A stretch of 61,596 nt of DNA from a virus (Duplodnaviria > Caudoviricetes), in IMG/VR virus record IMGVR_UViG_3300044858_001325, positions 1 to 61,596 of that record; one strand, given 5' to 3'. How positions within the stretch are numbered: position 1 is the first letter of the stretch; every line of letters begins with the position of its first letter. Under the pieces are notes generated by a model that was not told the DNA's origin, did no database searches, and saw nothing but the letters and a program-made list of their open reading frames with translations. The position numbers and the translations under genes are program-made. Shown in pieces: positions 1,637 through 55,285 of the stretch.

Positions 1637-1885
1637 ATGAGAGCCAGTCGCGGTATGGGGGTCATGAACCCCGGCAAAATGCCAAAGAAGGGGCGCCGCA
1701 AGGATGACCCCGACAGCTTTGACATGTACGCCGAGGGCGGCAAAGTCGGCCTTTACGACAACATCAATGCCAAGCGCAAGCGCATCGCAGCCGGATCTGG
1801 CGAGAAGATGCGCAAGCCTGGGAGCAAAGGTGCCCCGACCAAGCAGGCTTTCGTTGAATCGGCCAAGACGGCCAAGAAACGGTAA
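1637..1885 (+). CDS. Small basic protein with YAEGG motif
   Basis: 82 aa, K/R-rich, tightly packed in the operon. Confidence 0.75.
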   Translation: MRASRGMGVMNPGKMPKKGRRKDDPDSFDMYAEGGKVGLYDNINAKRKRIAAGSGEKMRKPGSKGAPTKQAFVESAKTAKKR

Positions 1886-1988
1886 CGGTGTTACGGTGTG
1901 GCCAATCATCTGCGCAAGGAGCGGCGAAGGCAAAACCCTCCGCATCAGCCTCCTGCGCCGCCGCCCGTAAACCCACCGGAGAAGCCCA

Positions 1989-2903
1989 ATGACAACGACC
2001 GGAACGACATCCTTCAACCTAGACCTCGCCAACCTCATGGAGGAGGCGTTTGAGCGCGCGGGTGGGGAGATTCGGTCTGGCTACGATGTGCGCACGGCTC
2101 GCCGCAGCCTCAACCTGCTGACCATTGAGTGGGCCAACCGGGGCATCAACCTCTGGACGATTGAGCAGGGCCAGATCCCCATGAATCAGGGGCAGATTGC
2201 CTACCCTTACCCGGCGGATACGATTGATCTTCTGGATCAGGTGGTGCGCACCCAGACTGGCATTGACCAGACGGACATCAACATCAGCCGGATCTCGGTG
2301 TCTACCTATGCCACCATCCCCAACAAAAACGCCCAGGGCAGGCCGATTCAGGTCTGGATCAACCGCCAGTCCGGCACGGTGTCGGCGAGCGGCCTGACGC
2401 TTTCTGGTGGCCTTCTTGCGGGGGTAACCACTGTTACCCTCAGTGCGGCACCTGAAAAGTTCCCGGAGATTGGTTTCATCAACGTCGGCTCGGAAACGAT
2501 CCAGTACACCGGCATCAGCGGCAATACCTTGACTGGGTGCTATCGTGGCCAAAATGGCACCACGGACGCCCTCCATGCTGGCGGCACACCGGTGTACCTG
2601 AACAATCTGCCGTGCGTGAACGTCTGGCCATCGCCCAATCAGGACAACTTCTACACCTTCGTGTACTGGCGCCTGAAGCGGATTGACGACGCTGGCAATG
2701 GCCGCGCCGAGCAGGACATCCCCTTCCGTATGCTGCCATGTCTGGTGGCCGGGCTGGCCTACTACATTTCCATGAAAATCCCAGAGGGCGCGAACCGCGT
2801 GGATCGCCTGAAGCTCGATTACGAGGAGCAGTGGCTGCTGGCTTCTGCTGAAGACCGGGAGAAGGCCGCTTTGCGGCTTGCCCCACGGCAAATGTTCTTC
2901 TGA
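1989..2903 (+). CDS. Virion structural protein (head-tail connector-like)
   Basis: GGAGA RBS; helical N and C termini around a beta insert; structural-region context. Confidence 0.6.
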   Translation: MTTTGTTSFNLDLANLMEEAFERAGGEIRSGYDVRTARRSLNLLTIEWANRGINLWTIEQGQIPMNQGQIAYPYPADTIDLLDQVVRTQTGIDQTDINISRISVSTYATIPNKNAQGRPIQVWINRQSGTVSASGLTLSGGLLAGVTTVTLSAAPEKFPEIGFINVGSETIQYTGISGNTLTGCYRGQNGTTDALHAGGTPVYLNNLPCVNVWPSPNQDNFYTFVYWRLKRIDDAGNGRAEQDIPFRMLPCLVAGLAYYISMKIPEGANRVDRLKLDYEEQWLLASAEDREKAALRLAPRQMFF

Positions 2904-2911
2904 GGTGACAC

Positions 2912-3346
2912 ATGCCGAACAGGTTTGCCTCGGGAAAATATGCAATCGCGGAGTGCGACAGATGCTCTTTCCGGTATCCGCTCAAGGTGCTGCGCTCGCT
3001 GGTCATCAAGACCAAGAATGTCAACCTGTTGGTTTGCCCGACGTGCTGGGAGCCGGATCAACCGCAGCTCCAGCTCGGCATGTACCCGGTGGACGATCCC
3101 CAGGCTCTGCGCAACCCGCGACCGGACACCAGCTATCTGACCTCCGGCCTGAATGGAATTCAGACCGAAAACCTGACCGCCCAGACAACGAGCCAGCTCG
3201 CGTTTGGGACGCCAGAAGGCGGCAGCAGAATCATCCAATGGGGATGGAACCCCGTCGGTTTGAACAACCCCCTCAAACTGAGCGGATTGCAGGATAATTT
3301 GCAGGCAAGTGGGCAAGTTGGTTCCGTGTCCGTTTCGACTACTTAG
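2912..3346 (+). CDS. Zn-ribbon phage protein
   Basis: CDRC...CPTC pairs; C terminus ends in one copy of the fibre repeat. Confidence 0.7.
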   Translation: MPNRFASGKYAIAECDRCSFRYPLKVLRSLVIKTKNVNLLVCPTCWEPDQPQLQLGMYPVDDPQALRNPRPDTSYLTSGLNGIQTENLTAQTTSQLAFGTPEGGSRIIQWGWNPVGLNNPLKLSGLQDNLQASGQVGSVSVSTT

Positions 3347-3354
3347 GAGAAGCC

Positions 3355-3564
3355 ATGAACAAGTATCTGTCCGGCGGCGATGTGAAAAAGGTTAAGACCA
3401 TTGCCAAAGCCGAAGTCAAAGGCCACGAAGCCAAAATGCACGGCAAGGGCTATGCAAAAGGCGGCGTGACAAACATGCAGCGCAAAGAGCTGGGGCGCGG
3501 CTTGGCCAAGGTGGCCAACCAGAAGAAGTCCAGCTTTACCTATCGCAAGATGGGAGGCAAGTGA
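3355..3564 (+). CDS. Small basic protein (YLSGG/YAKGG)
   Basis: AGGAG RBS; 69 aa, K-rich. Confidence 0.7.
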   Translation: MNKYLSGGDVKKVKTIAKAEVKGHEAKMHGKGYAKGGVTNMQRKELGRGLAKVANQKKSSFTYRKMGGK

Positions 3565-3764
3565 TGAGCAAAGCCAACGACAAGTTTGATTTCTTCCCTG
3601 CAAACACCAAGGATCCAATCAACAAGTACAAGCAGCCCAAGCCCTACAAGGATAACCTGGGTGAGAACGGCTATCCCAACGGCGTGGCCAACACCCAGAC
3701 GATGCGCACGCGCGGCACGAAGCACACCACTCGCGGCAACAGCAACAGCTTGAAGATGGGCTGA
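3564..3764 (+). CDS. Small hypothetical basic protein
   Basis: GGAGG RBS; overlaps the previous stop codon. Confidence 0.65.
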   Translation: MSKANDKFDFFPANTKDPINKYKQPKPYKDNLGENGYPNGVANTQTMRTRGTKHTTRGNSNSLKMG

Positions 3765-3765
3765 G

Positions 3766-4452
3766 ATGAACTACGACGAGCTGTTTGAAACGATCAAGGG
3801 ATACGTCGAGAACGACTTCCCTGGGACGACGTGGACGGATCCTGCTGGGACTGGGACGGTGACGTTCACCCAGAAGGAGCAGATCGACACGTTCATCAAA
3901 CAGGCCGAGCAGCGCATCTACAACACGGTGCAGCTTCCGGCGTTGCGAAAAAACGTGACGGGCAACTGCACCATCAACAACAAGTATCTGGCCATGCCAA
4001 GCGACTGGTTGTCGATGTTCTCTCTTGCCATCATCCGAGCTGACGGCACGCAGGAATATCTGCTGAACAAGGACGTTGAGTTCATCCGTTCTGCGTTCCC
4101 GGATCCTACGGACATAGGGGAGCCCAGCCACTACGCCATTTTTGACAACAACACGATGATCTTGGGCCCGACGCCAGATGCCTCCTACAACATGGAGATG
4201 CACTACTACGGGTATCCCACCAGCATCGTGGACGCGCCCAGCGGGACGACATGGCTGGGTGATCGTTTTGACAGCGCGTTGCTGTACGGCAGCCTGATGG
4301 AGGCATACACCTTTATGAAGGGTGAGACTGATGTCATTCAGATCTACAAGGCGCGGTATGACGAGGCGTTGGCGTTGTTGAAGGCGCTTGGCGACGGCAA
4401 AGATCGTCAAGATACTTATCGTACTGGCCAAGTGAGGTACCCCGTAACATGA
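3766..4452 (+). CDS. Head-tail adaptor / tail tubular protein A-like
   Basis: 228 aa, FIKQAEQRI...LLYGSLMEA pattern typical of podovirus adaptors; context. Confidence 0.6.
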   Translation: MNYDELFETIKGYVENDFPGTTWTDPAGTGTVTFTQKEQIDTFIKQAEQRIYNTVQLPALRKNVTGNCTINNKYLAMPSDWLSMFSLAIIRADGTQEYLLNKDVEFIRSAFPDPTDIGEPSHYAIFDNNTMILGPTPDASYNMEMHYYGYPTSIVDAPSGTTWLGDRFDSALLYGSLMEAYTFMKGETDVIQIYKARYDEALALLKALGDGKDRQDTYRTGQVRYPVT

Positions 4453-5189: not shown

Positions 5190-6818
5190 GTGGCAGATGT
5201 CACCGTACCGCTTGGAGGCTGGGGTGCCCTAAGCTGGGGTGAGGCAGCCTGGGGACAAGGCTCAGTCAGCCTGACCGGAACTGGTCAGGTTGGCTCAGTC
5301 ACGACCACCGCTGGCGCAGATGTCAGCGTTACGGGCGTTTCCGCCACTGGTGCGGTTGGATCTGTCTCCATCACTGGGGGCGCAAATGTCACGGTAACGG
5401 GCCTGTCGGCGACTGGGGCGGTTGGCTCTGTAACCGTCGCCGCCGACGCCAATGTGTCCGTCACTGGAGTGGCGGGCACTGGGCAGGTTGGAACGGTTCA
5501 GGCCCAGGCCGGGGCTGACGTAAACGTCACCGGCCTCTCGGCCACGGGCTCTGTTGGTTCCGTCACCATCACGGCGGATGCCAACGTCAGCGTAACAGGT
5601 GTTACCGGCACCGGGGCCGTGGGCTCCGTGTCTGTGACTGCTGATGCAAACGTCACCGCAACCGGGCTATCTGCAACCGGCCAAGTTGGCTCTGTCACGG
5701 TGGCGGCGGGCGCCAATGTGTCGGTCACCGGCCTGTCTGCTACAGGCCAAGTTGGCACCGTAGGGGTGCAGGCTGGCGCCACTGTCAATGTCACCGGTCT
5801 GTCGGCCACGGGCGCCGTTGGATCTGTCACGGTATCTGCCAATGCAAATGTGACGGCTACTGGGGTGACAGGAGCGGGCCAAGTTGGGACTGTCGAGGCT
5901 CAGGCCGGGGCGGATGTCAACGTCAGCGGTCTGTCAGCCACCGGGCAAGTTGGATCCGTCACCATCGTTGCAGACGCCAACGTCACTGTGACGGGGCTGG
6001 CTGCAACCGGCAGTGTTGGGTCAGCCACCGTGTCGGCGGACGCCAATGTCACCGTCACGGGCCTGCAAGCCACCGGATCAGTGGGCACGGTCGAAGCCCA
6101 GGCGGGCGCGGATGTGACCGTAACAGGTGTTACCGCTACCGGCCAAGTGGGGTCGGTAACCACGACGGGTGACGCAAATGTGACCGTAACCGGCCTGTCG
6201 GCCACCGGCAGCGTCGGATCCGTCGAAGCCCAGGTCGGGGCTGACGTAAACGTGTCCGGCCTGTCTGCCACGGGTTTTGTTGGCTCGGTCACTGTGGCTG
6301 CCAATGCAGACGTGTACGCCACCGGGGTGTCGGCTACTGGTCAGGTCGGGCAAGTTCAATCTGGCAGCATAGTTGTAGTTGACCTTGTTGGCGTCAGTGC
6401 CACGGGCGCAGTTGGGTCAGTAACAGCGCAGGCGGGCGTTGAGGTGTCGCTGGTCGGCCTGCAATGCGACGGACAAGTCGGCTCTGTTGAAGCCCAGGCT
6501 GGCGCAAATGTCAATCTCACGGGCGCTCAGGGAGATGGGCAAGTTGGCTCTGTCACGGTTAACGAAGGCGTCGGCGTGTATGTCACCGGCGTAGCGGCCA
6601 TTGGGGTTGTTGGCACCGTTGAGATTACTGGCGACGGCGTTGTTTACGTTACGGGTGTTTCCGCTATCGGCATCGTCGGCAATGTTTTAATATGGGGTCT
6701 AATAGACGAGAATCAGACCCCGAATTGGGCGGCCATCAATGATGGCCAAACGGACGGCTGGACGCCTGTGGATGACGCCCAAACACCCGACTGGGAAGAA
6801 ATTGCACAAGCAGCATAG
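5190..6818 (+). CDS. Repeat-rich fibre-like protein (about 22 copies of a 22-aa V/T/G/A repeat)
   Basis: ADANVTVTGLSATGQVGSVTV-type repeats; Trp-rich N and C caps. Confidence 0.8.
   Translation: MADVTVPLGGWGALSWGEAAWGQGSVSLTGTGQVGSVTTTAGADVSVTGVSATGAVGSVSITGGANVTVTGLSATGAVGSVTVAADANVSVTGVAGTGQVGTVQAQAGADVNVTGLSATGSVGSVTITADANVSVTGVTGTGAVGSVSVTADANVTATGLSATGQVGSVTVAAGANVSVTGLSATGQVGTVGVQAGATVNVTGLSATGAVGSVTVSANANVTATGVTGAGQVGTVEAQAGADVNVSGLSATGQVGSVTIVADANVTVTGLAATGSVGSATVSADANVTVTGLQATGSVGTVEAQAGADVTVTGVTATGQVGSVTTTGDANVTVTGLSATGSVGSVEAQVGADVNVSGLSATGFVGSVTVAANADVYATGVSATGQVGQVQSGSIVVVDLVGVSATGAVGSVTAQAGVEVSLVGLQCDGQVGSVEAQAGANVNLTGAQGDGQVGSVTVNEGVGVYVTGVAAIGVVGTVEITGDGVVYVTGVSAIGIVGNVLIWGLIDENQTPNWAAINDGQTDGWTPVDDAQTPDWEEIAQAA
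5260..6690 (+). repeat. Degenerate 66-bp coding tandem repeat
   Basis: 22-residue periodicity in the translation. Confidence 0.85.
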
Positions 6819-6829
6819 AGGACTGAAAA

Positions 6830-9442
6830 ATGACGATCAATTACACCACGCTGCTGGCACTGGCCAAGCCAGTTACCGGCACGGAAACCGGCCAATGGGG
6901 CGATGTAGTCAATGACCAGATTACATCGATGCTGGAGGACGCCATAGCCAATGCGGCCACGTTCAGCGTCACCAGCGGCAACGTCACCCTGACGACGGCC
7001 AACGGCTCAACCAGTCAAGCGCGGATGTCCACGCTGATCATCACTGGTACGCCGGGCACTACGCGCAACGTGATTGCGCCCAGTCAGGCCAAGATCTATG
7101 TGGTAATCAACCAGTCGAACGGCGCCGTCGTCATCAAGGGTGCCGCGACCACTGGCGTCACGGTCGGTGCTGGCCAGACGGCCCAGATTGCTTGGAACGG
7201 CTCTGACTTCGTGGAGATTGGAAATTACGTCCACGGCAATTTTGTCATCAACGGCAATCTCACGGTCAACGGCAACACGACCTTGGGCGATGCGGCAGCC
7301 GACAACATCACGTTCAACGGCACCATCACCTCGCACCTGCTGTTCACCGACAACACCTACGACATCGGTGCCAGTGGCGCGACGCGCCCGCGCAACCTGT
7401 TCCTGGCCGGCAACGCGACCATCGGCGGCAACACCACAATGACCGGCACGCTGACCGTGGACAGCACGACCGATTCCAGCAGCACGACCACCGGCTCGAT
7501 CCAGACGGACGGTGGCGTGGGCGTGGCTAAGGCACTGTACGTCGGTACCACGGCCAACATTGCAGGGGCCGTGACCCTTTCAGGCGGCACCGCAAACGGC
7601 GTGGCCTACCTTAACGGCAGCAAAGTCCTGACCACTGGGTCTGCGCTGACGTTTGATGGTTCGTTGCTAAACACCACCGGGTCAATCCGCGCACAAAACA
7701 GCCTGTTCGTGTATGGCACAGGCGACCGCCTAAACGTATTTCCGCAAACGGCTGGCAGCGGTGTTCAACTTGTTTCCACCAACAACGCCAACTCCGCTTA
7801 TGCACCGCTGACCTTGGATGGGTCGGCAACCATTTTCAATGCCAGTGGCGGCGAACAAATGCGCCTGACCAGCACAGGGCTGGGTATTGGGACGAGTTCG
7901 CCTACTGCAAAGTTGGATGTAAAGAAAACCTCCAACGACACAATCTCTCGGACAAATGCAGTAGGTGGTTTTGGGGATTGGGATTCCCTCGGCGCTGGTC
8001 TGCTGATGCAACAGACTCTGAGTTCGCCATATGGATTTGCACTGCAAGCAGCCAACGCAGCCAACAGCGTACAGTTCCCGCTGCTGCTCAACCCGTCTGG
8101 CGGCAACGTGGGTATTGGGACGAGTTCGCCTGCTTATAAGCTGGCCGTACAAGGCAGCGCATACATCACCTCCACAGTCGGCATTGGCACCACGCCTGGA
8201 AACTACGGCGGTCAGGTAGATATTTACGCAAACAGCAATGCTGTTTTTAATGGCATTTGGGTTCGCAACGACAGCAGCGGCGCATCTGCCAATGCTGGCA
8301 TCGTCATAAACGCATCTGGCAATAGCTGGCGCATGGCGATGGGGTCAACCGCCAATAACAACAATGCGCTTTTCTGGGCAGTTGATGCCGGCTCTCCGAC
8401 GACGCTGATGACTCTCAGCACCTCCGGCAACCTCGGCCTGGGGGTGACGCCGAGTGCTACAAATACCTCTTTCCGAGCATTTGAGGTCGGTAGCTTTACT
8501 GTTTTTAGCGGTACTGGTGGACTCTCGTCATACATAGACAACAATGCATTTTTTAATACGTCAAGCCAGTATATTTACAAGAGCAGTGGGCACGCCGGTG
8601 AGTATGCAATGCTCACTTCAGATGGCTCACACCGCTGGTACATCGCCCCCTCCGGCACAGCAGGCAACGCCATCACCTTCACCCAGGCAATGACATTGGG
8701 GGCAAATGGAAACTTGGCTGTTGGCGATACAAGCACAGGGAATGCTCGGTTATTTTCCTACATTAGTGATGCTTCATTGGCCGCAATCAACGCAAGACAA
8801 GACGGAGCCGGGCCAATTCAAGTTTGGAATTCTGGCGGCACCGAACGCGCCCGTATCGACTCCAGCGGTAACTTGCTGGTGGGGACGACGAGCCAGCCAG
8901 CGTTTGCAACATCGCGTGCAGTAGTTGCATACGGAAACGCAGACTACGCCTTTGCAGTAGTAAACAGCAACGCAGACCCATATGGGATGGCGATGGGGTA
9001 CACGGGAGCCGCGCCAAACAGTACATCCAACGCATTTTTTTACTGTCAAGATAGCGGCTCTACGCAAAGATTTTCTGTGCGCTCAAACGGAGGCGTTTAT
9101 AACTACAGCGCCAACGATATCAACCTTTCCGACCGCAGAGAGAAGACTAACTTCGTTCCGGCCAAGTCTTACCTTGAAACCATCTGCGCGATTCCCGTTC
9201 AGACCTTCAACTACATCGACCAGAACATGGAAGAAGACCCCGGCTTGACGCTGGGCGTGGTGGCGCAGGACGTTCAGGCTGTTGCGCCTGAGTTGGTCAC
9301 GGAAAGCAACTGGGGCAGCAAAGATGACCCCAAGATGCGGCTGTCGATCTACCAGACCGACCTGCAATATGCGCTGATGAAGTGCATCCAAGAACTCAAA
9401 GCCGAGGTTGACAGCCTCAAATCTCAACTCAAAGGAGCCTAA
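6830..9442 (+). CDS. Tail fibre with C-terminal intramolecular chaperone (peptidase S74-like)
   Basis: GNVGIGTSSP repeats; SDRREKTN autocleavage motif, GVVAQDV, terminal coiled coil. Confidence 0.9.
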   Translation: MTINYTTLLALAKPVTGTETGQWGDVVNDQITSMLEDAIANAATFSVTSGNVTLTTANGSTSQARMSTLIITGTPGTTRNVIAPSQAKIYVVINQSNGAVVIKGAATTGVTVGAGQTAQIAWNGSDFVEIGNYVHGNFVINGNLTVNGNTTLGDAAADNITFNGTITSHLLFTDNTYDIGASGATRPRNLFLAGNATIGGNTTMTGTLTVDSTTDSSSTTTGSIQTDGGVGVAKALYVGTTANIAGAVTLSGGTANGVAYLNGSKVLTTGSALTFDGSLLNTTGSIRAQNSLFVYGTGDRLNVFPQTAGSGVQLVSTNNANSAYAPLTLDGSATIFNASGGEQMRLTSTGLGIGTSSPTAKLDVKKTSNDTISRTNAVGGFGDWDSLGAGLLMQQTLSSPYGFALQAANAANSVQFPLLLNPSGGNVGIGTSSPAYKLAVQGSAYITSTVGIGTTPGNYGGQVDIYANSNAVFNGIWVRNDSSGASANAGIVINASGNSWRMAMGSTANNNNALFWAVDAGSPTTLMTLSTSGNLGLGVTPSATNTSFRAFEVGSFTVFSGTGGLSSYIDNNAFFNTSSQYIYKSSGHAGEYAMLTSDGSHRWYIAPSGTAGNAITFTQAMTLGANGNLAVGDTSTGNARLFSYISDASLAAINARQDGAGPIQVWNSGGTERARIDSSGNLLVGTTSQPAFATSRAVVAYGNADYAFAVVNSNADPYGMAMGYTGAAPNSTSNAFFYCQDSGSTQRFSVRSNGGVYNYSANDINLSDRREKTNFVPAKSYLETICAIPVQTFNYIDQNMEEDPGLTLGVVAQDVQAVAPELVTESNWGSKDDPKMRLSIYQTDLQYALMKCIQELKAEVDSLKSQLKGA

Positions 9443-9445
9443 ATC

Positions 9446-9763
9446 ATGACTACTATCACCTGGACAATCACTGCGATGGACTGCTATCCGCAAGAGGGTG
9501 GCAACACCGATGTCGTGTTCAATGTCCACTGGACATGCGCTGGCACTGACGGCACATACAACGCCTCTGTGTACTCCACCTGTGCTGTTCCCGGCCCAGG
9601 CAATCCGTTCACCCCATACCCAGACTTGACTCAGCAGCAAGTGCTTGGGTGGATCTGGGCCAACGGCGTGGATCAAGCAGCCACAGAGGCCGCTGTGCAG
9701 CAGCAGGTCAACAACCAGATCAACCCTCCGGTGGTCACGCCTCCTCTGCCTTGGGCGGCATAA
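9446..9763 (+). CDS. Tail-fibre-associated small protein
   Basis: AAGGAG RBS; PYPDLTQQQVLGW...PLPW pattern following the fibre gene. Confidence 0.7.
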   Translation: MTTITWTITAMDCYPQEGGNTDVVFNVHWTCAGTDGTYNASVYSTCAVPGPGNPFTPYPDLTQQQVLGWIWANGVDQAATEAAVQQQVNNQINPPVVTPPLPWAA

Positions 9764-9813
9764 TTGATGAGGGGTAATCCGCTGCCCCGTCACAGCGGCA
9801 CAAGGAGCTAGAA

Positions 9814-9987
9814 ATGAACGATCAAAACGTAACTCTGAAACTGGGTCTGGTGAATGCCATGCTGCAATATCTTGGCACTCGTCCGTATCAGGAGGTGTTT
9901 CCTCTGGTGCAGGAAATCCAAGCTGTGGTGATCCCGCAGTTGCCCGTGCCTGAGCAAAAGCCTGCTGAAGCCCCAGCCGCCGAGTAA
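9814..9987 (+). CDS. Hypothetical 57-aa protein, absent from the ORF track
   Basis: AAGGAG RBS; MNDQNVTLKLGLVNAMLQYLGTRPYQEV... Confidence 0.7.
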   Translation: MNDQNVTLKLGLVNAMLQYLGTRPYQEVFPLVQEIQAVVIPQLPVPEQKPAEAPAAE

Positions 9988-9997
9988 GGAGGGCATC

Positions 9998-10171
9998 ATG
10001 GCCGACAAGTGGATCCAATCCGCCATCAAGAAGCCTGGGGCCTTGCGGGCTTCGCTGGGCGTCAAGAAGGGGGAGAAGATCCCTGCCAAGAAACTGGAGG
10101 CAGCGGCCAAGAAACCCGGCAAGATGGGCCAGCGGGCTCGTCTTGCCCAAACCCTCAAGGGGATGAAATGA
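9998..10171 (+). CDS. Small basic 57-aa protein, absent from the ORF track
   Basis: AAGGAGG RBS; MADKWIQSAIKKPGALRASLG...RARLAQTLKGMK. Confidence 0.75.
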   Translation: MADKWIQSAIKKPGALRASLGVKKGEKIPAKKLEAAAKKPGKMGQRARLAQTLKGMK

Positions 10172-10386
10172 TCACCACCATTGAGGCGCATGAGCGTGAG
10201 GGGGCCATAGAGCCCCGTCACATTGTTGAGATTTTGTGCCCGGCCTGTGATCGGGACGTTGACGCCAATGAGCTGGCCAACATGAAGTGCAATGACTGTG
10301 GACAAGACCTGTCAGAGCCCAAGCAGAACGTAGCGATTCACGCCACGACTGTCCCGGCAGCCGGAGGCTTAACTATGGGTGACTGA
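10168..10386 (+). CDS. Small Zn-finger protein
   Basis: ATGA overlap; CPAC...CNDC. Confidence 0.65.
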   Translation: MITTIEAHEREGAIEPRHIVEILCPACDRDVDANELANMKCNDCGQDLSEPKQNVAIHATTVPAAGGLTMGD

Positions 10387-10387
10387 T

Positions 10388-10804
10388 ATGACCAATACCG
10401 ATGAAATTGCCATGCTCAAGGCCCAGGCGCGCGCGGAGATCCAGCGCCTTGAGGCCCAGTCCCCAGCCAAGGAAGTCGCTGGCAAAGCTATTGGCAAACA
10501 TGGCCTTGCCTATATCACAGCGATTGTTTTGGTCGGTGTTATAGCCAGCCTATTCCTTGAGGAGTCCAAAATCGCTGCGGTGATCGGGCTGGTTAGCGCG
10601 GCCTTGACCGCTTTGATTGCCATGCTCAACGGCATTGCCGGGGCCAACCCAAAGCAGGAAAAACCAGAGTTTGAGGTCATGAAGCAGTTGATCGACAAAC
10701 TCGACAAGCTCGACAGACAAGAGCAGCCCATGCGGGTTGAAGTAGAAGGCGACAGGGTGACGGTGCGTAAGGGTGACGATGTGGTCACCGCGAAGAAGGA
10801 GTGA
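10388..10804 (+). CDS. Two-TM membrane protein (holin/antiholin candidate)
   Basis: Two hydrophobic helices; lies upstream of the endolysin. Confidence 0.55.
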   Translation: MTNTDEIAMLKAQARAEIQRLEAQSPAKEVAGKAIGKHGLAYITAIVLVGVIASLFLEESKIAAVIGLVSAALTALIAMLNGIAGANPKQEKPEFEVMKQLIDKLDKLDRQEQPMRVEVEGDRVTVRKGDDVVTAKKE

Positions 10805-10806
10805 GC

Positions 10807-11307
10807 ATGGACTGGCTAAAACAGATTGCTCCTACCGTAGCCACTGCGCTGGGTGGCCCTCTTGCTGGGATGGCTGTGTCTGCCATTTCCAAAGCCATAG
10901 GTGTAGATGAGGACAAGGTAACTGACATCATCTCCAGCAACAAGCTCACGGCAGATCAAGTAGCCCAGATCAAGATTGCAGAGATTGAGCTTGCTAAGCA
11001 GGCGCAGGAGCTTGGTCTGAACTTTGAAAAACTGGCAGTCGATGACCGCAAGAGCGCCCGCGAGATGCAGGCGGTGACCCGTTCGTGGGTTCCTCCCTTG
11101 CTGGCCGCCTCGGTGACCCTCGGATTTTTCGCCATCCTTGGCGGCATGATGTTCGGTCAGATGTCCGTGGCTGACAACACGGCGCTCACCATGATGCTTG
11201 GCTCTTTGGGCACGGCCTGGACTGGAATCATTGCCTACTACTTCGGCTCGTCTGCTGGCTCTCAGGCCAAGACTGATCTGCTCTCTAAAGCACCGCCCGT
11301 CAAATAA
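10807..11307 (+). CDS. Holin-like membrane protein
   Basis: DRKSAREMQ, two C-terminal TM helices, YYFGSS; adjacent to the endolysin. Confidence 0.65.
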   Translation: MDWLKQIAPTVATALGGPLAGMAVSAISKAIGVDEDKVTDIISSNKLTADQVAQIKIAEIELAKQAQELGLNFEKLAVDDRKSAREMQAVTRSWVPPLLAASVTLGFFAILGGMMFGQMSVADNTALTMMLGSLGTAWTGIIAYYFGSSAGSQAKTDLLSKAPPVK

Positions 11308-11316
11308 GGAGTCTCC

Positions 11317-11772: not shown

Positions 11773-11774
11773 AC

Positions 11775-13697: not shown

Positions 13698-13700
13698 CGC

Positions 13701-14462: not shown

Positions 14463-14482
14463 ATCAAATACAAGAGGGTCAA

Positions 14483-18008: not shown

Positions 18009-18010
18009 AC

Positions 18011-19297: not shown

Positions 19298-19306
19298 GGA
19301 GAAAAC

Positions 19307-36865: not shown

Positions 36866-36867
36866 TC

Positions 36868-38454: not shown

Positions 38455-38456
38455 TC

Positions 38457-39747: not shown

Positions 39748-39762
39748 CGTGAGGAGAACACT

Positions 39763-44793: not shown

Positions 44794-44909
44794 CACCTGT
44801 TACCGTCCCCGGTTCGCCGGGGCCAAGACGCATGGGGATTGGATGCCTACCGCAGGCCCGTCTGATCAACGAGAGCAGGGTTGAACTCCCTGCTCCAGTC
44901 CCCAGCCGT

Positions 44910-46068: not shown

Positions 46069-46911
46069 ATGAAAAAATTAAATCTCGCGGCCATCAGACT
46101 TGATGGCTCGACACAGGCGCGAATTGCGCTTGATTCATCCCAGGTGACCGAGTACGCCGAGGCCATGCGGGACGGGGACAAGTTCCCACCCATCGTGGTG
46201 TTCCACGACGGCAGCGATTACTGGTTGGCAGATGGGTTTCACCGATACCACGCAACCAAGCAGAACGGCTTCACAAGCATCGAGGCCGAGGTCAAGACGG
46301 GCACGGTGGAGGAGGCGCAGATATATGCTTTCGGTGCCAATGCAAAGCGGGGGCTGTCAACATCACACGAGGACAATCGCAGCATCATCGTCAGGATGCT
46401 GAATCACCCGATCAGCAGCACATGGACAAACGCAGAGATCGCCCGGCATGTGGGCGTATCCAAGATGACGGTAGGCCGCATCAAGGCCAGCCTGGAGCAG
46501 AAGGAAGACTCTCCTCAAGACTCCAAGAAAACTTACCAGCGCAAGGACGGCAAGCAAGTCACCGTCGATACCAAGAAGCTGGTTACCAAGAAGGCCCAAC
46601 CCGAGGCTGAATCCCCAGAACAAGACGAGCGAGATCACAAGATCGGCGAGCTGCTCGACACCATCAATGACCTCAACACTGAGAACCAGCGGCTCAAGGA
46701 CGTGATCGCTGCGCAGCAGTGGGACGCATCGGACATCGAGCGCATCGACATTCACGAAACGCTGGTCGAGTTGCGCGGTCAAATCAAAACCCTGGAGATC
46801 GACAACCACGCGCTGCGCGACAGTCGGGACATGTTCCAAAGCCGCAATGCTGAGCTGATGAAGACGGTCAAGGTCTTGCAGGGGAAACTGAAAAAGCTGG
46901 AAACAGCCTGA
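46069..46911 (+). CDS. ParB/Srx-fold protein with HTH and coiled coil
   Basis: TQAR, PPIVVF, LADGFHR; WTNAEIARHVGVSKMTVGRI HTH. Confidence 0.85.
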   Translation: MKKLNLAAIRLDGSTQARIALDSSQVTEYAEAMRDGDKFPPIVVFHDGSDYWLADGFHRYHATKQNGFTSIEAEVKTGTVEEAQIYAFGANAKRGLSTSHEDNRSIIVRMLNHPISSTWTNAEIARHVGVSKMTVGRIKASLEQKEDSPQDSKKTYQRKDGKQVTVDTKKLVTKKAQPEAESPEQDERDHKIGELLDTINDLNTENQRLKDVIAAQQWDASDIERIDIHETLVELRGQIKTLEIDNHALRDSRDMFQSRNAELMKTVKVLQGKLKKLETA

Positions 46912-46970
46912 GATAGGGCGCGGTCGCCCTGGCCCACGCCGGAGGGATTCCGGTAGATGAAGGAGTGAAC

Positions 46971-48461
46971 ATGGAATTGATGCTGCGAGAGCATCAGCAG
47001 CAAGTCATTGAGGCCCTGCGCGAGGGATTTCGCCACGGCCATCAGGCTCAGTTGCTTTATGCCCCTACGGGGTTCGGAAAGACAGAGGTGGCCATCGCCT
47101 TGATGAAGGCCACGAAAGAGAAGTACAAGCGAGCTGCGATGGTGCTGGATCGCCTTGTGCTGGTGGATCAGACAAGCCTGCGTCTGTCCAAGTATCACCT
47201 GCCGCATGGCGTGTTCCAGTCGGGCCACTGGAAGTTCGACACGTCGGAGCGGCTTCAGGTGTGCAGCGCCCAGACGCTGGAGCGCAGAACAAAGTTCCCC
47301 CAGATCGATCTGCTGATCGTGGACGAGTGCCACATTGCGCGCAAGCAGACCGTTGAGTTCATCAAGGCCAACCCGAGTGTGAAGGTGGTCGGGCTCACTG
47401 CGACGCCGTTCACCAAGGGCCTGGGCGATGTCTACAAGCATGTGGTGTGCGGCGCCACAAACGAATGGCTGGTGGACAACAAGTGGCTGACGCCCCTGAA
47501 GGTGTTCATTGCCAAGGAGATCGACATGACTGGCGCCAAGAAGGTCGCGGGCGAGTGGGCCCAGGACGTGGTGACAGAGCGCGGCATGAAGATCACGGGC
47601 GACATCGTGGAGGAGTGGGTCAAGAAGACCCACGAGATCTTTGGCAAGCCTGAGAAGACCATCGTGTTTTGTGCGGGCGTAGCGCACGGCGCTGATCTGG
47701 TCGAGCAGTTTGCACGCAAGGGCTTCAACTTCGTGTCCATTTCCTACAAGGACAACGATGACTTCAAGCGGCAGGCCATCGAGGACTTTTCTCGGCCAGA
47801 CACAGAGATACACGGGCTGATCGCCACTGACATTTTGACGCGGGGCTTTGACGTGCCAGACGTGAAGATCGGCGTGTCGGCCCGGCCATTCAGCAAGTCT
47901 TTGAGCAGCCATGTGCAGCAGATGGGCCGCGTGATGCGCGCCCACGCCAGCAAGGAGTTCGGCGTGTGGCTGGATCACTCGGGCAACTACCTGCGGTTCC
48001 GGGACGACTGGGACGAGCTGTACGAGGCTGGCGTGCAGGAGCTGGACAAGAAGGTGGAGAAGGCCAAGAAGGAGCCCACCGAGAAGGAAAAGAAAGAGTC
48101 CAAGTGCCCGGCCTGCGGCCACTTGTGGCCACGCGGCATGGACATCTGCCCTTCATGCGGCCATGTGCGTCAAAAGCGCAATCAAGTCGAGGCCGTTGCC
48201 GGTGAGCTGGAGGAGCTGGCCACGGTCGGCAAGGCGAAGAAGGATGAAAAGCAGAGTTTCTACTCAGAGCTGGTCTGGTATGCCAGCCAGCGGGGCTACA
48301 GCCCCAACTGGGCAAGTCACAAGTACCGCGAGAAGTTTGGGGTCTGGCCTCGCGGCCTTGATTATGTGCCAGCCCCCACCAGTACCAAGACGGCGAACTG
48401 GATCAAGAGCCGCAACATAGCTTGGGCCAAGTCCCAGAGCAGAGTAAGGATGACAGCATGA
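46971..48461 (+). CDS. SF2 DExH helicase (RadD/UvsW-like) with Zn ribbon
   Basis: APTGFGKT, DECH, TAT, GFD, QQMGRVMR, CPAC/CPSC. Confidence 0.92.
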   Translation: MELMLREHQQQVIEALREGFRHGHQAQLLYAPTGFGKTEVAIALMKATKEKYKRAAMVLDRLVLVDQTSLRLSKYHLPHGVFQSGHWKFDTSERLQVCSAQTLERRTKFPQIDLLIVDECHIARKQTVEFIKANPSVKVVGLTATPFTKGLGDVYKHVVCGATNEWLVDNKWLTPLKVFIAKEIDMTGAKKVAGEWAQDVVTERGMKITGDIVEEWVKKTHEIFGKPEKTIVFCAGVAHGADLVEQFARKGFNFVSISYKDNDDFKRQAIEDFSRPDTEIHGLIATDILTRGFDVPDVKIGVSARPFSKSLSSHVQQMGRVMRAHASKEFGVWLDHSGNYLRFRDDWDELYEAGVQELDKKVEKAKKEPTEKEKKESKCPACGHLWPRGMDICPSCGHVRQKRNQVEAVAGELEELATVGKAKKDEKQSFYSELVWYASQRGYSPNWASHKYREKFGVWPRGLDYVPAPTSTKTANWIKSRNIAWAKSQSRVRMTA

Positions 48462-48562
48462 ACGACGAAGACATCAAGAGGGCCATTTTCAAGGGCAAGC
48501 TCTTGATCATTGGCATGGCGGCCCTGGCCGTTCTCATCGCACTGAAGTGGAGGTTTTCATGA
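48458..48562 (+). CDS. 34-aa membrane peptide, absent from the ORF track
   Basis: ATGA overlaps at both ends; LLIIGMAALAVLIAL. Confidence 0.55.
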   Translation: MNDEDIKRAIFKGKLLIIGMAALAVLIALKWRFS

Positions 48563-49422
48563 TTCAAGAACCGGAAGACGAAGCGTGGGACGAGGTGCAA
48601 AAGCGCATCGAGATGGAGCAGGCGTTGCGCGAGAAGGCCAAGGCCAACCCGATGGAGGCGCTGTACGAGGCCGTGCGCAGCGACAACCGAAGGAAGCAGG
48701 TAGGCATCATGCTGGCCATGCCGATGTTCGGGGGCATGTGCCACGGAGACTTTGCTCTGTCGATGATGCGCACGGTGCTGCTGCTGACCCAGCTCGGGTA
48801 TCGGGTGAGCACGCAGGCCATGTTCAACGAGTCGCTGATCACGCGGGCGCGCAACAACCTTGCGGCCACGTTCATGGCAGACAAGACGATGGACTACCTG
48901 ATGTTCCTCGATGCGGACATCCTGTTCTCGGAGCATGACGTGCTGCGGCTGCTGCTGGCGGATCGGGAGTTCTGCGGGGGCATCTACCCTCGCAAGGCCA
49001 TCAACTGGACGGGCGTAGCGGAGGCCGTGCGGGCAGGCAAGGACAACCCGGAAGACTGGTCGTGCAGCTACCTGTTCAACGCGGTCGGCATGGAAAACGG
49101 CGAGAGCGATGCTGACGGGATGATCGAGGTCACCCATGCGGCTACTGGCTTCCTGCTGCTGCGGCGGTCGGTGTTTGAGAAGCTGGCGCCGCACACCCAG
49201 ACCTACGAGGACGTGGTGCAGGGCAAGCCTTTTGTCGGCCATGATTTCTTCCGCGTCGGCGTCGGCGAGAACGGCAAGTACACCAGCGAGGACTACTGGT
49301 TCAGCACATCCTGGCGCAAGATCGGCGGGCGGATCTACTTGAACCCGTACCTGCGGCTGGGCCACATCGGCCAGCACACATTTAACGGCAACCTAGCCCG
49401 CATGGGCACAGAGGCCCTGTGA
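48559..49422 (+). CDS. Glycosyltransferase-like (GT-A) protein
   Basis: ESLITRARN, FLDAD (DxD), ATGFLL, SEDYWF, LGHIG. Confidence 0.8.
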   Translation: MIQEPEDEAWDEVQKRIEMEQALREKAKANPMEALYEAVRSDNRRKQVGIMLAMPMFGGMCHGDFALSMMRTVLLLTQLGYRVSTQAMFNESLITRARNNLAATFMADKTMDYLMFLDADILFSEHDVLRLLLADREFCGGIYPRKAINWTGVAEAVRAGKDNPEDWSCSYLFNAVGMENGESDADGMIEVTHAATGFLLLRRSVFEKLAPHTQTYEDVVQGKPFVGHDFFRVGVGENGKYTSEDYWFSTSWRKIGGRIYLNPYLRLGHIGQHTFNGNLARMGTEAL

Positions 49423-49739
49423 AGCGTGCGCGCCCGGATGCTGACTTCGTTGCTGAGCAGGCGCAGCGCATGATGGAGCTGTTGCAGCCAAGGGGCAATC
49501 TGAGCGCAGAAGATCGAGAGTATGCGGCGGAGCGGCTTTCAAAGATGCGCGACGAGCGGCTGCAAGGGATCTTCGTTGACTTGATTGGCTGGGGCGACGA
49601 TGAGCGGGCCGAGATCGAAACCTTTGTGGCCATTGCCATCGAGGTCATGAAGCGCACCAACGTCAGCAAGCTGCGCGAGTGCGCTCGGATCGTGGAGCTG
49701 CGGTACTGGATGAAAGACATGGACAGGGAGAAGGCATGA
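49419..49739 (+). CDS. Hypothetical protein
   Basis: GTGA/ATGA coupling. Confidence 0.65.
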   Translation: MKRARPDADFVAEQAQRMMELLQPRGNLSAEDREYAAERLSKMRDERLQGIFVDLIGWGDDERAEIETFVAIAIEVMKRTNVSKLRECARIVELRYWMKDMDREKA

Positions 49740-50617
49740 GATTTGAAGACTTTGCCCGGCTGCACGGGCTGCGCGTGGACAGTCTGATTCCAGGCCGCTG
49801 GGTGGCCGTCCCGACCGATGATCACCCCCGCAAGCGTAACGGGCGTTACCGTTGGCTGGGTGATGTGGGGTGGGTGCAGAACTGGGCAACGATGCAGGAG
49901 CCTGCCATGTGGCGCAGCGAGGAGCGGGACTACCAGTCGCCCCAGGTGCGGCGCGCGGTGGCCGATGCTGGCCGGGAGCGGCTGGAGCTGGCCAAGAAGG
50001 CTGCGAGTAAGGCCGGGTGGATCTTGCACCAGTGCAAGACAGACATTCACCCGTACCTTGAGAAAAAGGGGTTCCCGGATGAGTCCGGGAACGTGTGGAC
50101 GACCGAGGAAGGCCAGAGGCTTCTAGTTGTACCGATGCGGGCAGGATCCCGGTTGATCGGGGCCCAGCTCATCGATTGCGAGGGGAACAAGAAGTTCCTC
50201 TACGGTCAACAGACGAAGGGGGCATCGTTCACGATGGACGCAAAGGGCGCCCCAATCCTCTGCGAGGGATATGCCACGGCACTCAGCATCAGGGCCGTCA
50301 TGAAGGCCATGAAGGTGCGCTACACCATCCATGTGTGCTTCAGTGCAGGGAACATGAAGGATGTAGCGCGGGGCATCTCCGGGGGGATCGTCGTCGCCGA
50401 CAATGACCCGAATGGTGTCGGCGAGAAAGCCGCCCGAGAGACAGGTAAACCGTACTGGCTCAGCGATGCAGTCGGTGAAGACTTCAATGACTTTCATCGT
50501 CGTGTCGGTTTGTTCAAAGCCATGTCGTCCCTCAAGCGCGCCGTCTTTGCTGGTGGTAGTCCTGCCGCATCAAGCGCAGGAATTTCGCCTCAATCTGGCG
50601 CACCCGTTCTCGCGTGA
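49736..50617 (+). CDS. Toprim-domain primase
   Basis: HPYLEKKG, LVVPM, CEGYATA, VADND, GEDFND. Confidence 0.85.
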   Translation: MRFEDFARLHGLRVDSLIPGRWVAVPTDDHPRKRNGRYRWLGDVGWVQNWATMQEPAMWRSEERDYQSPQVRRAVADAGRERLELAKKAASKAGWILHQCKTDIHPYLEKKGFPDESGNVWTTEEGQRLLVVPMRAGSRLIGAQLIDCEGNKKFLYGQQTKGASFTMDAKGAPILCEGYATALSIRAVMKAMKVRYTIHVCFSAGNMKDVARGISGGIVVADNDPNGVGEKAARETGKPYWLSDAVGEDFNDFHRRVGLFKAMSSLKRAVFAGGSPAASSAGISPQSGAPVLA

Positions 50618-53579: not shown

Positions 53580-53582
53580 GGT

Positions 53583-53864
53583 TCAGCCCTCCAGCGTGGC
53601 AAGGATAGAGCGGGCGCCGTCAAGGGCGGCGCGCTCGGCAGTGCTCAGGCCACCGGCGCCGGTCGGGCGCATGGTCACTGCCAGATGCAGGCGGCGCAGT
53701 GCTGCGGCCAGCTCGGGCGCGGCAGCGATAAGGCGCGCGTCCGCCGGGTTGCGGGCGTCAGAGTAGACGACCTCGCCGATGGCGCGGCCTTGCTTATCGT
53801 TGATCAGGTACACGCGGGCGCAGTGGCCATCAGCGATGGCCCAAGGTGCGGGGGTGTGCGTCAT
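53583..53864 (-). CDS. HTPAPW...ARLIAAAPEL family protein
   Basis: Common phage small-protein motif; GGAGG RBS. Confidence 0.75.
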   Translation of the reverse strand: MTHTPAPWAIADGHCARVYLINDKQGRAIGEVVYSDARNPADARLIAAAPELAAALRRLHLAVTMRPTGAGGLSTAERAALDGARSILATLEG

Positions 53865-53868
53865 GGTG

Positions 53869-54048
53869 TCAGCCCTCCAGCTCATTGGCTGCATCCTCGC
53901 AGGCCGTTACCAGCCCGTCGAAGTCTTCATCCGGCCCCAGGATCGAGGCCAGCGCGTGAACGGTGGCCAGCGGCAGGCCGTTATCCTCGGCCAGCCCTTG
54001 CAGATAGTCGCGGCGCGAGGTGTAACCGTGTTCGGTGTAAATGCTCAT
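53869..54048 (-). CDS. 59-aa first gene of the leftward operon, absent from the ORF track
   Basis: AGGAG RBS; MSIYTEHGYTSRRDYL...LGPDEDFDGLVT. Confidence 0.75.
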   Translation of the reverse strand: MSIYTEHGYTSRRDYLQGLAEDNGLPLATVHALASILGPDEDFDGLVTACEDAANELEG

Positions 54049-54111
54049 GGTGTCAGCTCCTAACAGTGGTTGATGTCATCAGGTGACCCGGAATGGGTAT
54101 CACCTGCCGAC

Positions 54112-54140
54112 ATTATGGGGGCTCAATGGTTGACTGTCAA
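54112..54140 (-). promoter_or_regulatory. Strong sigma70 promoter of the leftward early operon
   Basis: TTGACA-17-CATAAT on the minus strand. Confidence 0.8.
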
Positions 54141-54274
54141 GCACTCAAGCGCCCGCACGGTATTGGGATAAACCCTGCCCGAAGGGCAATAGCCCAGGCG
54201 CTGCCCTTCAGGGAGAGACAAGGGCCCAGCAAGGGGGCCTGTACCTGTCCACCCGTCCCCGGTATCATGGAGGG

Positions 54275-55285
54275 ATGAAGTCTCCGAAAATACTCGAAGC
54301 AACGAAGGCGCCTAAGCTATCCCGGCGCAAGGTGGCCGAAGCACTCCAGGCCGTGCCGGTCGATGTGGTGCTACTGGGCGCAGTGGGCGCGAAGTCCACC
54401 AAATTGACCGCAAAGCAAAAGGCATTTGCGGAAGGTGTAGCGATGGGAAAGACAGGCGCGCAGGCATACCGCGACGCATACGACAGCAAGGGCAAACCCA
54501 TCACGCAAGGGCAGGAAGCAGCACGCCTGAAGGCATCCCCTCACATTGCCGCACAAATCGAGGCGCTGACCCTGGCCAATGAGGCGATGAGATACGCAAC
54601 CCCGGCGGCCTTGAGGGCGCTCGTGATTCAGAAGCTCACCGAGCACGCCATCAGCCAGGAAGTGAAACCGGCCCAGCGGCTGCAAGCTCTCAAGTTACTG
54701 GGCACCGTTACCGAGGTGGCGGCCTTCACCGAGCGGCGCGAGATCATCAAGACCACCGACGCGGGCGCCGCGCGCGCCGCCTTGCTGGAGAACTTGCGGC
54801 AGGCCCTGCGCAGCTCTGCCACTGATGCGCAGATCATTGAGACAAAAGGCCCGAGGGTAACGCCTGTTACCCTTGCAGACCCCGACGCGGCCCAGGCCAG
54901 CGACGCGCCGCCGCCGGAAGACCCCCAGCCGGTCGCCGATGCCGCCCAGGCCGACCCCACCGCCCCGCCACCCCCTGCGCAGCGCGCAGCGAGCGCCCGC
55001 ACTATGCTTAGTAATCCACACGTTGGATCCCATCCTGAACTTAATTTTTCCGATGCGACCCAGCCTAGCCAGTCTGCGCCTGACCTTGAGGCAAGGGTAA
55101 CACCTGTTACCCTACCTGGGGTAAACCCGAAGGTAACACCTGTTACCCTTACTAGGGAAAACCCGGAGGTAACAGATGTTACGCTTGCTGAAGTTGGAGA
55201 GGGGGGTGGGGCTATGAAAAGTTGGGACGTGATAGGAAATGGCTATGGCAAAGTGCCCCCCGGTGGAAATTGGGTAGAAAAGTAG
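54275..55285 (+). CDS. terS: Terminase small subunit with long disordered C-terminal extension
   Basis: LTAKQKAFA...AQAYRDAY HTH, RLQALKLLG; upstream of terL. Confidence 0.75.
   Translation: MKSPKILEATKAPKLSRRKVAEALQAVPVDVVLLGAVGAKSTKLTAKQKAFAEGVAMGKTGAQAYRDAYDSKGKPITQGQEAARLKASPHIAAQIEALTLANEAMRYATPAALRALVIQKLTEHAISQEVKPAQRLQALKLLGTVTEVAAFTERREIIKTTDAGAARAALLENLRQALRSSATDAQIIETKGPRVTPVTLADPDAAQASDAPPPEDPQPVADAAQADPTAPPPPAQRAASARTMLSNPHVGSHPELNFSDATQPSQSAPDLEARVTPVTLPGVNPKVTPVTLTRENPEVTDVTLAEVGEGGGAMKSWDVIGNGYGKVPPGGNWVEK
55096..55184. repeat. 36-bp tandem repeat carrying three GTAAC-N4-GTTAC palindromes
   Basis: Palindrome starts at 55097, 55133 and 55169. Confidence 0.9.

Follow-up and report, generated by a model that had tools for sequence, protein, structure and literature searches.

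A short DNA palindrome, GTAAC-N4-GTTAC, is scattered over the genome of the phage under study (G000), and it was analyzed here together with the proteins that may read it. The DNA analyzed, called the window below, was the IMG/VR virus record IMGVR_UViG_3300044858_001325 at its full length of 61,596 bp, with a G+C content of 58.9%. The window contained 13 exact copies of this N4 form and four exact copies of an N3 form, GTAAC-N3-GTTAC, giving 17 sites. An earlier sequence-only reading of the window had called the palindrome genome-wide and had attributed it to a phage-wide protein-binding system. All 17 start coordinates reported there (13 N4, 4 N3) were exact, and the term genome-wide can be taken literally, since the window is the whole virus record, which is rated 99% complete. 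The palindrome was thus confirmed as a real feature of the DNA. The genes of the candidate readers, the RusA gene and the sites were located as follows.

22405..34401: polyvalent protein of 3998 aa, with ART-PolyVal, LPD38, HATPase_c_3, SAP and a DNA methyltransferase segment
34457..34813, minus strand: RusA
46069..46911, plus strand: ParB-like protein
54275..55285: TerS (phrog_51)
55321..55545: LexA-type winged helix protein (wHTH), 74 aa

1882..1894: N3 site (GTAACGGTGTTAC), 104 bp before gene 1989..2903; its TAA ends the open reading frame (ORF) 1637..1885
2424..2437: N4 site, read as VTTVT, in gene 1989..2903
5592..5605: N4 site, VTGVT, in the 66-nt tandem-repeat gene 5190..6818
6120..6133: N4 site, the second VTGVT site of the same repeat gene
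14547..14559: N3 site in gene 14483..14773, frame 3, RNTVT
18197..18209: N3 site in gene 18005..19297, VTGLP
24469..24482: N4 site, VTPVT, in the Pro/Ala-rich N-terminal linker of the polyvalent-protein gene
24511..24524: N4 site, VTPVT, the second linker site, 42 bp after the site at 24469
34824..34836: N3 site, intergenic, 11 bp upstream of the RusA ATG (34813, minus strand)
38137..38150: N4 site, VTGVT, in gene 36853..38454
40630..40643: N4 site, VTGVT, at codons 8-12 of the methyltransferase-like gene 40609..41280
44790..44803: N4 site; its TAA is the stop codon of ORF 44581..44793, 1.26 kb upstream of the ParB gene
49836..49849: N4 site in frame 3 of the primase gene, over the conserved peptide RNGRY
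54857..54870: N4 site, VTPVT, in the TerS gene
55097..55182: array of three tandem N4 sites at 36-bp intervals (55097, 55133 and 55169), within the 3' extension of the TerS ORF

The form of the palindrome was strict. All 13 N4 sites had perfect arms, and allowing one mismatch in the 5-bp arms added no further N4 site; with two arm mismatches the matches sank into the background (20 N4-type matches against a shuffle mean of 8.6). No GTAAC/GTTAC pair with any other spacing from 0 to 11 was found in G000. The fuller consensus of the N4 sites was (A)GGGTAACA-SS-TGTTACCC(T), and the N3 form had the same arms around a one-base centre. The full palindrome of the tandem array, which lies 152-224 bp upstream of the wHTH gene, was AGGGTAACA-CC-TGTTACCCT, and the three-site array was retained in the near-identical contigs L014, L027 and L033. 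The weakest copy was that at 49836, in which the inner A..T pair is swapped for G..C; relatives keep the peptide RNGRY there without the DNA motif. Eight N4 sites had the core ACCT or AGGT, as counted in the earlier reading, with four copies of each. Because the two cores were equally frequent although the site-bearing genes all lie on one strand, the element has no strand sense, as expected for recognition of the duplex. An RNA hairpin or antitermination site was ruled out, since the loop is without strand sense. A natural variant of the site at 54857 was found in the lake population X11 (depth about 115). It had lost one centre base, which turned the N4 form into the N3 form, and a one-base insertion 22 bp upstream restored the TerS frame (positions 54840 and 54862). 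From this variant, the two spacer forms seem to be interchangeable in nature.

The selection behind the sites was investigated by shuffling. Dinucleotide-preserving shuffles (n = 100) gave zero matches for the N4 pattern and zero for the N3 pattern. Synonymous-codon shuffles within genes (n = 1000, 66 curated genes) gave a mean of 2.8 and a maximum of 7 sites, compared with 17 observed; two non-coding sites were never shuffled in this test, and the coding expectation was about 0.8. The earlier reading had proposed this codon-preserving test, in which similar counts after shuffling would speak against the motif, and such counts were not reached. Twelve sites lie in frame 1 (GTA ACN), namely 11 VTxVT sites and the site at 18197, while two lie in frame 3 (xGT AAC; 14547 and 49836). 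At 1882 and 44790 the TAA of the motif ends the upstream ORF, and 34824 is the one intergenic site. All 11 VTxVT peptides in the 66 curated genes were coded GTA-ACN-NNN-GTT-ACN. GTA makes up 8.5% and GTT 20% of the valine codons of G000, and ACA makes up 12% of its threonine codons. The use of the rare GTA and GTT codons in 11 of 11 peptides therefore indicated selection on the DNA, and the earlier claim that the motif forces the VTPVT and VTGVT peptides was borne out. In the repeat gene 5190..6818, most repeats code VTG[VL] by other codons (GTT/GTG/GTC, ACG, GGC/GGG), and two repeats have the exact motif. In the relative L010, the exact 16-mer lies in the orthologue of gene 3766..4452, which has no motif in G000, so coding sites come and go. 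A protein-level VTPVT motif was ruled out by the codon usage and by the peptide LTDVR, its counterpart in the relatives G006 and G007. The results showed that the sites are selected as DNA.

The 17 sites formed 11 clusters, with gaps of 2.5-10.3 kb between clusters and a standard deviation of 2.46 kb. These gaps were more even than random (P = 0.004 unconstrained; P = 0.028 when random sets with gaps below 1 kb were excluded). The even spacing of the 11 clusters is modest evidence.

Complete and near-complete relatives carried their own extended-type palindromes, four in G001, three in G006 and four in G007. One position was common to all complete relatives: a site at the 3' end of TerS or in the gap before the wHTH gene. 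G006 and G007 also had a site about 115-145 bp upstream of TerS. The divergent region of RusA and the exonuclease held a site in G000 (34824) and in G007 (56150, between RusA and the exonuclease gene). In G000, 39 bp separate this site from the -35 hexamer of a downstream sigma-70-like promoter (34875..34903, plus strand); promoters are consensus matches only. A site lay on the parB start codon in G001 and G008 and 25 bp upstream of parB in L355. The G000 site at 44790 is in the same syntenic interval that holds the parB-start site in G001 and G008. A GC-rich hairpin, CCCCGG-TTCG-CCGGGG (44804-44826), follows directly 3' of the site at 44790, at the end of ORF 44581..44793, and has no T tract. 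The Pro-rich N-terminal linker of the giant gene contained two sites in G000, two in G001, and one each in G006 and G007. The linker sites had lineage-specific outer arms, and the peptide was VTPVT in G000 and G001 versus LTDVR in G006 and G007. Because the linker peptide shifts with the motif of the lineage, the conserved element is the DNA site and not the protein.

The ParB-like protein at 46069..46911, whose ORF is open from a TTG at 46054, consists of a putative ParB_N domain, a helix-turn-helix (HTH) with the recognition helix S-K-MTVGR, and a C-terminal coiled coil. It matched the PHROG family of ParB-like partition proteins at 1.1e-22. It also aligned with Thermus Spo0J 1vz0 (E 2.4e-5) over residues 6-144, from the N-domain through the HTH. 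The stretch 'tnaeiarhvgvskmtvgrik' stood opposite the Spo0J HTH, so the HTH is in the Spo0J position, and Pfam HTH_23 matched weakly at residues 124-145. The C-terminal 90 residues are a conserved coiled coil. In several related loci, a 93-98-aa ORF beside the helicase gene retained this C-terminal coiled coil only (G009, at L347:6069-6350 on the minus strand; L276; L277; L289; L299; L322; L353). The coiled coil seems to have a function of its own.

The occurrence of the motif was compared with the state of ParB across related records. A strong site was defined as TAACA-N1-3-TGTTA with at least two further complementary flanking base pairs. Strong sites were present in 20 of 20 related records with a full-length ParB and the helix S-x-M(T/M/F)V(G/S)R; some of these 20 are close kin (L205/L363; L355/L356). 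None was present in the seven records with the coiled-coil remnant only (L276, L277, G009, L289, L299, L322 and G014), from which the near-identical rows L281 and L283 were left out. G009 alone is 49 kb of sequence with no strong site. Records with ParB_N and HTH and a different recognition helix also had none (0/5). The rule was then used for prediction. Four motif-bearing records in which ParB lay outside the locus (L302, L309, L317 and L271) all had a full-length ParB in their contigs (4/4); L330, where no strong site occurs, had only the ParB remnant in its contig. In the helicase tree, remnant lineages appeared in both main clades, which are parted by branches with 100/99 support. The DNA-binding part of ParB was probably lost in two to three independent places, and within one clade probably in two; this count is the helicase tree read with the ParB states and was not recomputed.

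The recognition helix was compared with the bases of the motif. Among relatives the HTH reads IA(R/K)HVGVS-x-MTVGR(I/V), and the core TAACA accompanies the conserved MTVGR. The residue x varied together with the base before TAACA as follows.

x = K or R: base g (G000, L354, L364, L355, G001, L356, L360)
x = S: base t (L357, L363, L350, L365, L366)
x = A or P: base c (G007, L352, L367, G006)

On the ParB tree, the S/t state needs five changes, of which at least three are forced by well-supported branches. The sisters L365 (S, t) and L367 (A, c) are separated by branch lengths of 0.055 and 0.072. ParB proteins with other helices were accompanied by other palindromes. L361/L362, with the helix NRSTVGR, carried CTGTTGCACGTGCAACAG, a symmetric variant of canonical parS, and L372 carried GAAACGGCCGTTTC twice. 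The earlier reading had suggested co-variation of the motif with the ParB or LexA recognition helix as a check. Residue x of ParB tracked the base before TAACA, and the helix of the LexA-like wHTH did not: its residue A goes with g in G000 and with t in both L335 and L302. In these comparisons, motif presence, core and flank were shown to follow the presence and the recognition helix of the phage ParB.

Therefore, the palindrome can with fair confidence be regarded as the cognate site of G000's own orphan ParB (46069..46911), a parS-like or KorB-operator-like element. The phage-wide protein-binding system with the ParB-HTH protein as binder, as first proposed from the sequence, was supported by presence and absence and by helix co-variation, both of which are comparative. 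The LexA-like wHTH and TerS were disfavoured because both persist in lineages without the motif.

Several findings weigh against this assignment. The records share ancestry, and the link between ParB and motif is comparative only. The family scores of the protein are low: Pfam ParB_N (PF02195) gave E 4e-5 and 24 bits, under the cut-off of 26.3, and TIGR00180 gave 25 bits against a cut-off of 58, the best NCBIfam matches being Noc and parB_part. Box II is G56-F57-H58-R59, invariant in 18 of 18 aligned relatives, and stands opposite GERR of Spo0J 1vz0. As it is GFHR and not GERR, clamping that depends on a nucleoside triphosphate (NTP) is uncertain. No ParA matched among the ORFs scanned with Pfam, PHROGs and NCBIfam (about 20 small ORFs of the 66 curated were outside the scan), as the sequence-only reading had also seen, and the module is on that ground not a ParABS partition system. 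The parB start of G000 itself carries no site, and G000 has 17 sites where the complete relatives have 3-4. N3 and N4 forms, with centres of 1 and 2 bp, coexist in G000, which is unusual for a fixed dimer, and several relatives likewise mix centre lengths. The helix code had exceptions in L351 (A with a), L349 (K with a and g) and L307 (M with a). Finally, the TerL-related L194, L203, L209, L222 and L224 carried CTAACA-W-TGTTAG, and no ParB was found in their short contigs.

In these CTAACA phages (L194, L203, L209/L212, L222, L224/L226), 5-9 copies of CTAACA-W-TGTTAG, with the same core as in G000, were spread over 1-6 kb upstream of TerL. The wHTH was not found in their short contigs either, and a Pfam scan of the ORFs in the loci L222 and L224 gave no DNA-binding domain.

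Among the other candidates, the wHTH was the initial favourite. The palindrome would then be the operator of this LexA-type protein, regulating its own gene and the late operon, with the dispersed copies as extra operators or roadblocks. The wHTH gene does follow the tandem array at a distance of 152-224 bp. Relatives found through TerL carry palindromes of their own, and of the first 21 distinct wHTH variants, 20 had TAAC-N3-5-GTTA upstream, within about 250 bp (L175 with an extra copy at -400), and in L181 a five-copy array fills the gap between TerS and wHTH. The fold is that of the LexA DNA-binding domain (25.4 bits in Pfam, cut-off 23.7; TM 0.81 to 3jso), and the AAC-N4-GTT spacing of the motif equals that of the Gram-positive LexA box. 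In a wider sample drawn through the wHTH itself, the best 80 loci of 573 related stretches with 54 distinct proteins, only 23 of the 54 variants had a palindrome within 300 nt. Nine more had one at -529 to -975, and sites at -500 to -975 lie inside or before TerS and not at the wHTH promoter. The wHTH was present in all seven records without any strong site. L277 and L299 keep the recognition helix RGNVARKM as in G000, with no palindrome in 10-20 kb, and the helix does not follow the flanking base. The wHTH was dropped as binder because of the 23/54 result and the motif-free lineages that keep the recognition helix. It is a DNA-binding domain only, with no S24 peptidase or dimerisation domain, and it scored 25.8 for TIGR00498 against a cut-off of 110.95. 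The LexA fold named in the earlier reading was thus right, but the protein is kept with an identical helix where the motif is missing and shows no co-variation with it, and its role as the reader is improbable. The likenesses to the LexA box and to matS concern geometry only. As a separate observation, a stand-alone wHTH between TerS and TerL, with 56-100% identity in the loci examined, occurs in at least 573 IMG/VR stretches and is not tied to the palindrome.

A slightly less probable reader, and an unlikely one, is a host protein, such as the host ParB, another nucleoid protein or a defence or repair factor; the same low weight is given to the idea that the sites act as hairpins or cruciforms. 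Twelve related loci carried a sequence with 0-2 mismatches to what we take to be canonical bacterial parS, located in the TerS region at a distance of 62-809 bp upstream of the wHTH gene; chance alone would give about 0.4 in 1.67 Mb. The match was exact in L275:1697-1712, L276:9938-9953 and L279:4485-4500. It had 1-2 mismatches in L286/G009, L298, L300, L305, L310, L314, L318, L327 and L329. L276 and G009, both without the DNA-binding half of ParB, are among these loci, and host ParB may serve there. The parS-bearing sister lineages possibly use host ParB for the same purpose. The outer arms of the palindrome vary yet stay complementary around a centre of 1-3 bp, as a stem-loop would allow. 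Against a bare hairpin stand the four ACCT and four AGGT loops on genes of one strand, and neither a host factor nor a bare structure would be expected to co-vary with a phage protein. The exact 16-mer was not iterated in any of the 120 genome matches listed. It occurred once in each, in scattered taxa and at about chance level. A host-iterated motif of the HIP1 or USS type was rejected, given the single 16-mer per genome and the scattered taxa among these matches.

It is very unlikely that the sites are pac- or cosB-like packaging sites read by TerS, with the dispersed copies as secondary initiation sites. The only site position common to all relatives is in or just after the TerS gene, tandem arrays of 3-8 copies adjoin the terminase genes, and the pac sites of many headful phages lie in or near the TerS gene. 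The TerS of G009 is 44% identical, yet no strong site occurs in its 49 kb. Conversely, TerS of G000 is only 33-35% identical to TerS of G006 and G007, yet the core TAACA is the same. A perfect dyad fits a dimer and not the TerS ring, and packaging gives no logic for the conserved sites at the parB start, in the RusA/exonuclease region and in the giant gene. The assembled contigs that carry the sequence showed no molecule ends. The least likely reader is a domain of the 3998-aa polyvalent protein. This protein includes a methyltransferase segment (phrog_757, 2.3e-46) and a SAP domain, and its residues 794-833, shortly after the two internal sites, match ParB_N faintly. That ParB match, a candidate of the earlier reading, lies below the Pfam cut-off (E = 0.11) and has no HTH. 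Enrichment instead of avoidance of a methylase target would need an explanation of its own, and G009, which lacks such a palindrome, also has the giant gene.

The ParB reading was compared with known systems, and KorB with its operator OB on the IncP plasmid RK2 was closest in layout. In that system, as in G000, a ParB-family HTH protein is accompanied by a short palindrome with a one- or two-base centre, scattered over a replicon of about 60 kb, with some copies at promoters and others far from any. G000 has many such operators over the replicon (17 sites, 11 clusters), and some sites lie at putative promoters or gene starts (34824 in G000; upstream of TerS in G006 and G007; at the parB start in G001). 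KorB has 12 binding sites, according to a reference title in PMC11790492, and the available part of that article describes it as a sliding clamp, dependent on CTP, which can silence RK2 promoters from a distance. KorB differs in having the ParA partner IncC and the clamp-locking partner KorA; no ParA was found in the G000 ORFs scanned. G000 differs further in its box II GFHR, in that most copies are intragenic, and in that the replicon is a podophage of lytic type.

Spo0J/parS and Noc/NBS share with the G000 ParB the domain order of N-domain, HTH and C-terminal dimerisation part. The parS and NBS sites are palindromes of 14-16 bp and may lie inside genes. The G000 protein differs from Spo0J and Noc in scores far under the family cut-offs, in its coiled-coil C-terminus and in the lack of a ParA among the ORFs scanned. 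The arms are AACA-centre-TGTT in G000 versus TGTT...AACA in parS and NBS, and the sites are spread round the genome and not clustered. Stoperators of Cluster A mycobacteriophages are likewise many genome-wide copies of the site of one phage protein, some of them overlapping gene ends; their distribution across the phage genome is described in the available part of PMC9283540. In G000, by comparison, the site is a dyad with no strand sense, its candidate reader is of ParB type, and the scanned ORFs included neither immunity nor integration genes. Stoperators themselves are asymmetric, have one orientation, and are read by the monomeric immunity repressor of temperate phages.

The remaining systems were more distant. 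The wHTH shares the DNA-binding fold of LexA; it has no S24 peptidase, and it occurs without the motif, which separates it from LexA and the SOS system. For MatP/matS, the arms differ (GTAAC in G000, GTGAC in matS), and no search for MatP was made. The matS site is the 13-bp GTGAC-N3-GTCAC, and the N3 form of the motif has the same length. Phage ParB proteins that activate thymine dioxygenases are described in the accessible part of PMC13229309. Those ParB proteins have no DNA-binding domain, whereas the G000 ParB has an HTH. ParB as a thymine dioxygenase activator was rejected, as no Tet/JBP match was found in the 10 ORFs scanned at 36853-49422. According to the available part of PMC12704722, phages and mobile elements commonly carry orphan ParB-like proteins with no ParA. 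The literature searches, made without supplements, turned up no described cognate site set for ParB of this clade and no account of a system like that of G000.

A mechanism may be outlined for the G000 ParB. A dimer, joined by the C-terminal coiled coil, would set one HTH on each arm of the site. The helix M-T-V-G-R would read the core TAACA, and the preceding residue, lysine in G000, would read the flanking G; the predicted target duplex is GGTAACACCTGTTACC. The core sites of related phages are few and lie in the terminase region, upstream of parB, in the divergent RusA/exonuclease promoter region and in the giant-gene linker. G000 would have multiplied its sites to 17 by recoding tolerant gene stretches, even TAA stops, so that a loading site is offered every 2.5-10 kb. 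By analogy with ParB and KorB, clamps may load at the sites and then slide or spread, if the nucleotide switch is retained. About one site per 5 kb would extend their coverage to the whole genome. By the same analogy, we infer ParB binding, spreading or sliding, and a resulting genome-wide control or organisation.

The position of core sites at operon starts suggests KorB-like control of the late, recombination and parB-helicase-primase operons. As several core sites have this position, transcriptional control was rated slightly ahead of organisation or partition. The main alternative role for ParB and its sites would be genome organisation, or partition in a carrier state, to which the parS in sister lineages lends some weight. 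A broader picture is possible, and we hold it tentatively. The lytic-type podophage may load an orphan ParB clamp from 17 self-written sites over its whole 61.6-kb genome, as a KorB-like timer or silencer or as a carrier-state 'centromere'. The module may be interchangeable with host ParB/parS, with the remnant lineages borrowing host ParB, and a code of K/R-G, S-T and A/P-C would make its specificity predictable and open to re-targeting.

Orphan phage proteins of the ParB fold have roles that are largely unknown according to the available part of PMC12704722, and G000 offers a handle on them. It pairs one orphan ParB with a full and exact set of candidate sites, natural specificity variants and natural loss-of-function lineages. 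It is also an example of recoding, in which rare codons, the recurrent VTxVT peptide and even stop codons are dictated by a DNA site. There is also ecological reach: the phages form a large uncultured freshwater group related by TerL to the abundant HTVC023P-type pelagiphages.

The placement of G000 in this group was examined. All 24 listed runs containing its sequence are lake-water metagenomes, with no RNA data set among them. The nearest cultured TerL was that of Pelagibacter phage HTVC027P, with 52% identity (HTVC023P-type pelagiphages), and a megablast of 46000-58000 against cultured phages gave zero matches. G000 belongs to a large uncultured freshwater phage group. The HTVC023P-type group is reported to be very abundant in the available part of 10.1101/2019.12.14.876532, and the available part of the literature on these phages makes no mention of palindromes, promoters, ParB or LexA. 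No integrase or CI-type repressor was found among the G000 ORFs scanned, and G000 is classed as a podophage of lytic type. The remaining features of the window were as follows.

5190..22401: tail-fibre gene (6830..9442), gene of a virion structural protein (11775..13697) and ORFs with no named match
35104..41280: HNH, exonuclease, kinase, Erf, SSB and methyltransferase-like genes
46965..50617: helicase, unnamed ORF 48547..49422, primase
about 50.8-54.0 kb, minus strand: block of small genes
55595..57181: TerL
57193..59712: portal

Distant TerL relatives (70-76% identical; L220, L233, L246, L228/G002 and L235/G003) without wHTH or ParB carried iterated perfect palindromes of their own. These were TTACTGTCNGACAGTAA (8 copies), CTCAAGTCNGACTTGAG (7), CCTGATACGTATCAGG (7), GCATAGGAATTCCTATGC (5) and ATCTCAC-N4-GTGAGAT (3-4). 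They lay mostly between minus-strand early genes upstream of TerS.

The TerS ORF of G000 extends about 145 codons past its family-matching part (residues 39-173), and this Pro/Ala-rich extension holds four sites; in L181 the homologous TerS gene ends before the array. The product of the repeat gene 5190-6818, which lies beside the tail-fibre gene, has 542 aa and about 20 tandem repeats of 66 nt (22 aa) with the pattern ADV(T/S)VTG(L/V)xATGxVGSV. Similar repeats of the 22-aa type were present in G002, G003 and G004.

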